Source: Planctomycetota bacterium
GTDB taxonomy: Bacteria; Planctomycetota; MHYJ01; WSZJ01
Direction of reading: 5' to 3'
Assembly (NCBI GenBank): GCA_009773755.1
Contig: WSZJ01000037.1
Coordinates: 11,903-75,902, forward strand
DNA: 64,000 bases
Below the pieces are notes generated by a model. It did not search any database. It was not told the origin of the DNA and saw nothing but the letters and a program-made list of their open reading frames with translations. The position numbers and the translations under genes were made by a program. Below are positions 41,749 to 43,291 of this stretch, one piece after another. Each line of letters starts with the position of its first letter. Positions within the stretch are counted from its first letter, which is position 1.

Positions 41749-42663
41749 ATGCGCTTCCCCGCGATCGTCCTCGCCTTCGTCGTCGCCGCTCTCCCCGTCC
41801 TCGCCGACCCACCCACCGAGCAGGACGTCCGCGGCTGGATCGCGCAGCTTTCCGACGACGATTCCGTGAAGCGCGACGAGGCGCAGCGGCGCATCGAGTC
41901 GCTCGACATCGCGTGGAAGAAAACGCTTCAGGATTCTCTCGCGGCGTCGACCGACGCCGAGGCGCGCGCGCGGCTCACCGAAATCCTGGCGAAAATAGGC
42001 CGCATCCAGTGGATAACAGACGTCACCGCCGCGGTCGCGAAGGCGCGCGCGGAAAAGAAGCCACTTCTCGTCATGGCCACCCCTGGCGCTCCCGACAGCT
42101 TCTCGTGACTCGGCGGCCACCTCATGCGAACCGTGACGTTCGCGGATGCCGACCTGTGCGCGTGGATGAACCGGACGTTCGTCCTCGCGTGGTACGACAT
42201 CAAGCCGGAAGCCACCGCCGCGGGCCTCGGCGCGCTTCAGCCCACCTACTCCAGGGAAGAAATCGCCGCCTACCCCGAGGGCGGCGGCGGCACGAACGTC
42301 CGCGCGGTCTTCTGCTCCCCTGAGGGAATCGTCCGCCACGCGACCCAGGGCTGGTGGCCCGCCGGCCGCTTCCGGGAGGAATGCGAGCGCGGCCTGGCGT
42401 GCGCCGGGGCGAAGTCGCTCGACGCGGCGAAGGATCTGCGGGCGAGGGGCGCGGACGAGCTGATCAAGGCGGCAAACGAGCTGGCCGCTGCGAATCCTGA
42501 AGAAATGAGGCGGCCCGTGCGCGAGTCCGCCGTCGCCCGGCGCGTCGCGGCGCTTCGGTTGCGCGCGACGACCTACGCTCAGATGGAAGGAGCGATCGGG
42601 CAGGAAGCGGTGATCGTGCTGGGAGACTGGGAGGAGGAGGCCGAGGGGCGGATCATGAAGTGA
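41749..42663 (+). CDS. Putative secreted selenoprotein (SelN-like thioredoxin fold), in-frame TGA at 42106-42108
   Basis: Signal peptide; ORF continues in frame across TGA (KPLLVMATPGAPDSFS*LGGHLMRTVTFAD); downstream hairpin. Confidence 0.75.
42126..42143 (+). promoter_or_regulatory. Candidate bacterial SECIS hairpin
   Basis: GCGAAC-CGTGAC-GTTCGC after a 17-nt spacer from the TGA. Confidence 0.65.
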
Positions 42664-42733
42664 GGGTAGTGAGGCGAACCCGGTCAGGGTTCAACGGAAA
42701 GTTCGGAGACGGGAGTCGGGAGACAATCCGGGA

Positions 42734-43291
42734 ATGCGGTGTTCCTTTGTGTTGCTGGCGTTGTCCGCCTGCGGGTGCGCTTCGGCGCCGCCGGCTGCGT
42801 TTTCTCTGAGCAACGACGCCGCTCGCGAACTCGCGAAGAAAGAGCGCAAACCGCTCCTCGTGCTCTCCGTCGTCGGCGACCTCGATGGCAGGTTGTGACT
42901 CGCAGCGCACGTCCTGAGAGCCGTGACGCTCTCGGATCCAGGAGTGAAGCGCTTGATCGAAGAGAACTGGGTTTCCACCTGGCACAACCAGTGCCCGGGT
43001 CTCTACTGCAACAACACGGCCGACACGCGAAAGCCGATTCCCTACCCATCGGAGCAGTTTGACACCGTGTATGAAGGCGTCGGCGGCGGGAACATCCGGC
43101 TGTTTTTCTGCGACAAAGATGGACGCATCATTTACGCCGTCACGGGGTACCTTTCGATCTCCTCGATGATGGACGCAGAGAGGTTCGCGCAATACCTCCT
43201 GCCCCTGGGCGAGCGCCACAGGAAGATCGCATGCGAGATGGAAGCCACGTCTGGCAGGTCCTCCGTGAAATCGAGGACAACATCTATCTGA
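42734..43291 (+). CDS. Putative selenoprotein lipoprotein (SelN-like), in-frame TGA at 42896-42898; C-terminus possibly frameshifted
   Basis: Lipobox-like LSACGC; KPLLVLSVVGDLDGRL*LAAHVLRAVTLSD; shares EGxGGxN(V/I)RxxFCxxxG with the paralog. Confidence 0.72.
42916..42933 (+). promoter_or_regulatory. Candidate bacterial SECIS hairpin
   Basis: GAGAGC-CGTGAC-GCTCTC after a 17-nt spacer from the TGA; two compensatory pairs versus the first copy. Confidence 0.65.

Follow-up and report, generated by a model that had tools for sequence, protein, structure and literature searches.

In a stretch of 64,000 nucleotides from the genome of a Planctomycetota bacterium (contig WSZJ01000037.1; hereafter the window), two tandem genes on the + strand, which we call A and B, are each open only if one in-frame TGA is read through, and a small hairpin with the loop CGUGAC lies directly downstream of both of these TGAs. 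Judging from the comparison of homologous sequences, each hairpin is very probably a bacterial selenocysteine insertion sequence (SECIS) within the coding region, from which we infer binding by SelB and actual insertion of selenocysteine (Sec, U). The element itself is of a known kind, an ordinary bacterial SECIS, while the protein family that carries it appears to be uncatalogued as far as the main texts of the catalogues that we checked extend. We further see an even chance that the hairpins mark one branch of a large uncatalogued family of exported thioredoxin-fold proteins with a single Sec (U-x-x-G/A/H, without a resolving Cys) that has multiplied in Planctomycetota, in which Sec is near-obligate and the SECIS has been carried through well over 100 divergences by compensatory change, fixing residues such as Thr at +8 that are variable in the Cys orthologs.

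An earlier note on this DNA had already read the two hairpins as SECIS elements, and this has held up: the genome encodes the machinery for Sec, the stem goes with TGA among the members of the family, its paired positions covary, the codons that build it are chosen with a strong bias, and the hairpin is lost in two orthologs that use Cys.

Two genes with in-frame UGA codons and their hairpins

Gene A encodes a hydrophobic N-terminus, a helical N-domain, a thioredoxin-like domain with U120 and a helical tail, and gene B is 28-30% identical to it over the domain (Table 1). Both TGAs (42106 and 42896) are in frame with a coding signature on either side, and since the two genes each terminate at a further TGA codon, this triplet is also an ordinary stop in the genome. 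The hydrophobic N-termini of both proteins and a lipobox-like LSAC in gene B (LLALSAC), recognized by eye, suggest export. Neither protein has a second redox residue after the Sec, with the sequences U-L-G-G-H in A and U-L-A-A-H in B.

Table 1. Positions in the window of the two genes, their Sec codons and the putative SECIS hairpins.
Feature	Position	Strand	Description
Gene A	41749..42663	+	304 aa probable selenoprotein with a predicted thioredoxin fold, predicted to be exported; translated with TGA = U
Sec codon of gene A (U120)	42106..42108	+	first-Cys position of the thioredoxin CxxC motif; Cys (TGC) there in orthologs L177 and L178
Putative SECIS hairpin A	42125..42144	+	stem UGCGAAC / GUUCGCG, 7 bp, outer pair U-G; loop CGUGAC at 42132-42137
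Gene B	42734..43291	+	185 aa paralog of gene A; thioredoxin-like domain with U55
Sec codon of gene B (U55)	42896..42898	+	assigned from translation and family alignment
Putative SECIS hairpin B	42914..42935	+	stem CUGAGAGC / GCUCUCGG, 8 bp; loop CGUGAC at 42922-42927

The assembly from which the window comes is a metagenome-assembled genome (5.78 Mb in 302 contigs, 88% complete, 65.7% G+C). It contains selA (544 bits), a SelB C-terminal wing domain (76.6 bits) within a 674-aa frame, selD (370 bits; contig C224:33524-34450) and two tRNA-SeC genes, so that cognate SelA, SelB, SelD and tRNA-Sec are all encoded within the same genome. The selD gene has an in-frame TGA itself, and its product selenophosphate synthetase is probably a selenoprotein here as well.

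One could take the TGAs for real stops in split or decaying genes, or suppose that TGA has been reassigned genome-wide to a standard amino acid, but we give these ideas next to no chance. It is true that gene callers split such genes: when 1.84 billion protein representatives were searched, 3256 family proteins were found at E <= 0.001, and among the domain rows of the best 150 of them, 92 start just past the Sec column, often with the Met or Leu codon at +6. Likewise, a few database entries have W or G at the Sec column. However, beyond the coding signature on both sides of the TGAs, the terminal TGA of both window genes and the full Sec machinery, the codon occupies a single column of the alignment, that of the catalytic Cys, in most members of a family that has matches in 32 of 41 genomes (40 relatives and the genome itself). 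Across a sample of 152 distinct family segments from these 41 genomes and from metagenome-derived records, this column holds TGA in 127 and a Cys codon in 13, most of which are DUF255-like with CHWCH; the remaining 12 have Ser, Asn, Ala, Leu or Thr there. The 92 shortened rows are Sec genes cut by gene callers. The entries with W or G (representatives P0013, P0019, P0044 and P0079) seem to stem from gene prediction with a genetic code in which TGA means Trp or Gly, and this may be a cause of mis-annotation.

The hairpins have the shape that the earlier note had described. Seventeen nt past the TGA, gene A has a 6-bp stem of GCGAAC (42126-42131) and GTTCGC (42138-42143) around CGTGAC (42132-42137), and gene B has one of GAGAGC (42916-42921) and GCTCTC (42928-42933) around CGTGAC (42922-42927), which places the loop 23 nt from the UGA in both genes. 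Two pairs differ between these stems by compensatory change, one from C-G to A-U through CGA>AGA (synonymous for Arg) and GCG>TCG (Ala>Ser), the other from A-U to G-C through ACC>GCC (Thr>Ala) and TTC>CTC (Phe>Leu), so that three of the four base changes alter an amino acid and one is synonymous, again as first described. RNAfold pairs 42125-42131 with 42138-42144 in hairpin A (-9.2 kcal/mol) and 42914-42921 with 42928-42935 in hairpin B (-13.1 kcal/mol); as plain hairpins, the two come to -7.9 and -11.6 kcal/mol.

On these two sequences alone, the hairpins are only moderately beyond chance. The background was taken from contiguous stems that start 9-20 nt downstream of a Cys codon in long open reading frames, and stems of at least 6, 7 and 8 bp follow 12.7%, 5.3% and 2.3% of 8484 such codons in this G+C-rich genome. 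Against dinucleotide shuffles, the 26-nt hairpins reach z = -1.88 (A) and -3.33 (B; none of 200 shuffles folds as well), and synonymous resampling of stem length with the codon usage of the genome returns p = 0.02 for gene B. The case for the hairpin therefore rests on comparison across homologs.

Conservation of the hairpin and its link to UGA

The stem goes with the TGA. At least 6 bp starting 9-20 nt past the TGA are found in 115 of the 127 TGA segments vs 3 of the 25 segments without TGA, and 93 of the 127 have at least 7 bp. Where the stem has at least 5 bp (122 segments), its position is narrowly set, with a start 15-17 nt past the TGA in 93 and a UGA-to-loop distance of 22-24 nt in 107. 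Loops vary across the family (CGUGAC in 40 cases, CGGGUC, GGGC, GUCA, CGUGU, GGA and others), and nearly all have a G at position 1 or 2.

Covariation was assessed in an alignment of 116 sequences that is ungapped for 60 nt from the TGA, over eight pairs formed by columns 19-26 with 33-40. Paired cells make up 74.1% vs 66.7% in shuffles, and the covariation score is 0.316 vs 0.197 in shuffles and at most 0.160 in slid-register controls, with 0 of 500 shuffles reaching the observed value on either measure. Individual pairs switch between complementary states, as in pair 22-37 (AU 58, CG 25, GC 3), pair 25-34 (AU 46, GC 41, GU 14) and pair 26-33 (CG 61, GC 17). The outer two pairs are weak, which leaves the 6-bp core of the earlier note as the conserved part. 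Many of the cells that count as unpaired come from subfamilies in which the register is shifted by 2 nt (CUGAGGG-CGGGUC-CCUUCAG) or the loop has only 4 nt (UGAGGAC-GGCC-GUCCUCA). Compensatory replacement is also seen among close relatives of gene A, where one stem version has changed from C-G to G-C, and in the more distant member L089 (C-G to U-A).

Codon choice carries a further signal. An Arg is found at +7 in 118 of the 127 TGA segments, and its codon covers three positions of the stem. These Arg codons are AGA in 47 cases, AGG in 29, CGG in 23, CGA in 11 and CGT in 8, with not a single CGC, although CGC accounts for 48.5% of Arg codons genome-wide and AGA and AGG for only 2.6% and 7.3% (together 9.9%, vs 76 of 118 here). 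The first base of this codon, which is synonymous between A and C, depends on the base that opens the partner codon: A meets U in 58 cases and C meets G in 28, while A meets G in 2 and C meets U in 10. Another 16 cases of A with A belong to the subfamily with the stem shifted by 2 nt. The loop, too, seems to be selected as RNA. The earlier note had cautioned that it also encodes a conserved Val-Thr, and this concern is largely answered: while the window genes read the CGUG loop as xxC-GUG-ACx, distant members have it in another frame and with other amino acids (CGU-GCG, CGU-GUG), and orthologs of gene A show the synonymous loop variants GGUCAC, GGUUAC and GGUGAC, all of which keep G followed by G or U. 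These patterns point to selection on the hairpin at the level of the RNA and not only of the protein, with codon choice apparently bent to fit the stem.

What happens to the hairpin when Sec is replaced can be followed in orthologs of gene A. All six core pairs are present in 17 of 17 Sec (TGA) orthologs, in 8 stem/loop versions whose loops all have G and then G or U; their Arg codon is CGA or CGG and the motif reads MRTVTFAD in 14 of the 17. A metagenome scan yielded 8 loci, 6 with TGA and an intact hairpin and 2 with TGC on soil-metagenome contigs (L177 and L178). The first of these Cys orthologs retains 5 of the 6 core pairs with the loop CCUGAC, Arg CGG and the motif MRSLTFAD, the second only 3 of 6 with CUCGAC, Arg CGC and MRSSTFAD, and neither loop has a G in its first two positions. 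Hence the hairpin is not kept in these Cys-codon orthologs, a comparison that the earlier note had named as part of its refutation test, and it seems to be tied to UGA and to decay once Cys replaces Sec (two cases at the DNA level). At the protein level, the motif of Cys forms reads MRS[LMSV]-, MRH[VA]- or MRTVP-. No Cys ortholog of gene A was found in 401 genomes of the phylum or 56 of the class, where close matches all have TGA, and such forms came only from the protein library (full-length in P0005, P0006, P0008, P0009, P0011, P0014 and P0051) and from metagenome contigs. Orthologs of gene B have the same register in 10 of 16 cases and a different hairpin in the other 6, again with a CGUGU or CGGGU loop. 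On both L177 and L178, the tandem gene-B ortholog still has TGA beside the gene-A ortholog that now uses TGC, so the two neighbors have changed independently.

The strongest alternative would be that the stem is a mere by-product of the conserved motif L/M-R-T/A-V-T-F/L-S/A-D at the start of thioredoxin helix 1 and that the RNA has no role, which we regard as distinctly improbable. Several results speak for it or otherwise weigh against a SECIS, and we list them together. Synonymous resampling of stem length gives p = 0.17 for the 7 bp of gene A because its amino-acid motif alone already yields a mean best stem of 5.1 bp, and resampling of minimum free energy (MFE) gave no signal (z = -0.07 for gene A) and did not separate Sec from Cys sites. 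In 45-nt contexts, the shuffle z is +0.10 for A and -0.85 for B. A Cys homolog with CHWCH (C273) also has a 6-bp stem at the same offset, and the homolog C244, which lacks Sec, has a 10-bp hairpin at a shifted place (p = 0.01) that is not seen in its orthologs. Part of the covariation, namely Thr..Phe vs Ala..Leu, could be protein-level coupling of residues i and i+3 as in helix packing. When independent contrasts for three stem pairs were drawn on a FastTree topology with the hairpin residues masked, the partner changed the same way about 3.6, 1.8 and 4.0 times and the opposite way about 0 times, yet each test is underpowered (median p 0.125, 0.5 and 0.125). By the simple measure, 12 of the 127 TGA members have no contiguous 6-bp stem, and only 108 of 159 TGA sites pass the strict bulge-free consensus, which also fits 2 of 27 non-TGA sites and 307 of 3000 Cys codons from the background. 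Finally, the Cys orthologs available as DNA are just two. However, a by-product of the protein would not be expected to avoid CGC altogether, to match a synonymous base to its partner or to keep CGUG in different reading frames, and it should persist in the homologs without TGA and in Cys orthologs with nearly the same motif, which instead lose pairs and use CGG or CGC.

A second alternative accepts the hairpin as a functional RNA and makes it something else, such as a site of ribosome pausing or a determinant of mRNA stability, with Sec insertion depending on another signal. In its favor, binding of SelB is a step that we deduce, and the Rfam covariance models gave no match at E <= 10 in the window between 41000 and 44000. 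Nevertheless, this is very hard to believe, since the hairpin matches the SECIS consensus in its UGA-to-loop distance of 22-24 nt, its size and its G[G/U] loop, it goes with TGA and is lost with TGC, and RNAfold folds contain no other hairpin candidate near the UGAs of genes A and B.

As SECIS elements, the hairpins would work as in the established bacterial pathway. Once a ribosome has arrived at the UGA, SelB loaded with Sec-tRNA(Sec) would bind the stem-loop, which lies 23 nt further downstream, through its C-terminal winged-helix domain, with the G-U early in the loop as the expected contact, and Sec would be inserted in place of termination. The products would be two tandem exported paralogs of thioredoxin fold with Sec at the position of the nucleophilic Cys and without a resolving Cys. 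Because the SECIS spans codons +6 to +13, RNA pairing would then dictate codon choice and even part of the protein (M/L-R-T/A-V-T-F/L-A/S-D).

The general bacterial SECIS and the search for other selenoproteins

The prototypes of the bacterial SECIS are the fdhF and fdnG elements of E. coli, with which hairpins A and B presumably share no likeness in primary sequence. The window hairpins have no evident bulged nucleotide in the upper stem, and the sequences of their stems and loops belong to a single protein family. The general consensus used by bSECISearch, as given in the main text of PMC13188914, comprises a loop of 3-9 nt, a stem of 4-16 bp, an MFE of at most -7.5 kcal/mol, a G in the first two loop positions that is mostly followed by G or U, and a distance of 16-37 nt from UGA to loop. 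Hairpins A and B agree with every term of it: they follow an in-frame UGA directly and within the coding sequence, have an upper stem of 6-8 bp and an apical loop of 6 nt whose second and third bases are G and U, keep 23 nt to the UGA and fold below -7.5 kcal/mol, though gene A as a plain hairpin barely passes. They also resemble the general element in the presence of selA, selB, selC and selD in the genome and in a structure that compensatory changes preserve and that goes with UGA, not with Cys codons. The earlier note had called the element a lineage-specific SECIS, and for this we find no support. Hairpins A and B are identical at 14 of 18 nt compared to 45% identity in the rest of the aligned domain, and this likeness is due to shared descent of paralogs under a common constraint, not to a SECIS special to the organism; the particular hairpin sequence is the shared inheritance of one paralogous protein family.

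The idea that the element could be used to mine the selenoproteome of the organism is likewise not supported. The proposed genome-wide pattern search (TGA-N17-stem6-CGTGAC) returned just 3 sites, in genes A and B and in the paralog on contig C222; the same literal pattern occurs 0-1 times after each of six control trinucleotides. A covariance model built from 116 family hairpins returned only its 10 training members from the genome, a weak negative, as scoring reached only 150 of the 13723 first-look candidates. The general consensus errs on the other side, and its hits after ordinary Cys codons make a hairpin alone poorly specific here. The lesson for mining is that in this G+C-rich genome a family-specific hairpin model finds the family only while the generic consensus fires after about 10% of ordinary Cys codons, so that selenoproteins must be sought here by a two-sided coding signal, Cys/Sec homology and the hairpin together.

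Hairpins also follow further in-frame UGAs of the genome, as the earlier note would have expected. An fdhA-like gene, genes for UxxC thioredoxin-like proteins and others have hairpins with G-first loops that start 11-17 nt downstream and differ in their stems and loops (GUCA, GAUA, GUC, GUG, AGGUG). The SelB of this lineage may prefer loops of the (C)GUG type, which several unrelated genes here share. When the genome was scanned de novo for TGAs flanked on either side by coding signal, dozens of candidate selenoprotein genes emerged, and the genome looks unusually rich in selenoproteins. Among the candidates are numerous UxxC thioredoxin-like genes, one that is fdhA-like, one that is deiodinase-like (S-Y-T-U-P-P-F) and several of unassigned type (D-Y-U-T-H-F-W, D-L-U-P-P-F-W). 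Example sites are C52:20977, C259:48416, C281:16987/17927, C29:12476/13500/14920, C28:13125, C79:18915, C253:12938/16309 and C41:10126.

A family with a probable thioredoxin fold and a single Sec

Searches of the genome with genes A and B retrieved five further paralogs with TGA at the same aligned column (C222, C15, C71, C161 and C78) and two homologs without stops (C244 and C100). With a profile of seven thioredoxin-like domains, 25 segments were found in the genome, in which the Sec column holds TGA in 18, TGC in 6 and TCG in 1. The family copies with TGA number at least 10 close ones and 18 in the wider sense. Most of the matches listed across the 41 genomes have exactly one TGA, and one genome alone matched 39 times. 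In a broader sample of the phylum, a gene-A-like query at E <= 1e-10 matched 46 of 401 genomes, almost always with one TGA.

Some members deviate from this pattern. The two homologs without stops (C244:17901-18740 and C100:11432-12247) are full-length relatives of gene A that lack both Sec and Cys at the active-site column, which is Ser in C244, and their products may be redox-inactive. The paralog on C222 (ca. 1548-2513; locus L006:1384-2349) has a second in-frame TGA (C222:1620) right past the signal peptide, in the context D-C-U-T-K-D, that is conserved in the same-genus ortholog L058. Fifteen nt past this TGA lies a hairpin (GAAACCC-UGGCA-GGGCUUC) with one A.C mismatch that is A-U in L058, and the paralog probably encodes two Sec residues, each with a SECIS of its own.

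Among proteins of solved structure, the family profile best matches the N-terminal domain of the DUF255/Thioredox_DsbH type (3ira_A, E 4.8e-8), followed by 2kuc_A (E 1.7e-6, 120 of 131 positions) and AGR2/AGR3 (about 1e-4), and the Sec column coincides with the leading Cys of CHWC or WCGPC. These likenesses are distant, and unlike the window proteins, 3ira_A and AGR2/AGR3 use Cys and not Sec; AGR2 is a single-Cys CxxS protein. Genes A and B resemble known thioredoxin-fold selenoproteins in that their products are predicted to be exported, have Sec at the nucleophilic Cys and are encoded with a probable SECIS directly downstream. In contrast to these, the window family has the motif U-x-x-[G/A/H] without a second redox residue.

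No model of Pfam or NCBIfam reaches its cut-off with these proteins. NCBIfam VPGUxxT (NF041383) and Trx7/PDZ (NF041199) score only 12-16 bits (12.3-15.5), where 275 and 300 would be required. With Pfam, Thioredoxin_7 and Thioredox_DsbH attain 13-22 bits, short of the 27 required, and all Pfam matches are below the gathering threshold. The text of the review PMC13188914 makes no mention of PF13899, PF03190 or DUF255, and "Planctomycet" occurs 0 times in the main texts of this review and of the BSepDB paper PMC13326102. A literature search for selenoproteins in Planctomycetes or Planctomycetota likewise gave nothing relevant. The genes that surround A and B in the window, encoding a ribonucleotide reductase, a HEAT/cyclophilin protein and a DUF309 protein, offer no hint of a functional link to them.

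For annotation, these results mean that two seemingly broken reading frames merit entry as two intact selenoprotein genes. Beyond this, the family would show in a clean natural case how an RNA signal within coding sequence shapes the protein, with Sec forms locked into R-T-V-T-F and rare Arg codons and Cys forms that drift to R-S-x-T-F and common codons. The host genome, apparently rich in selenoproteins, is of interest for the biology of selenium in Planctomycetota.

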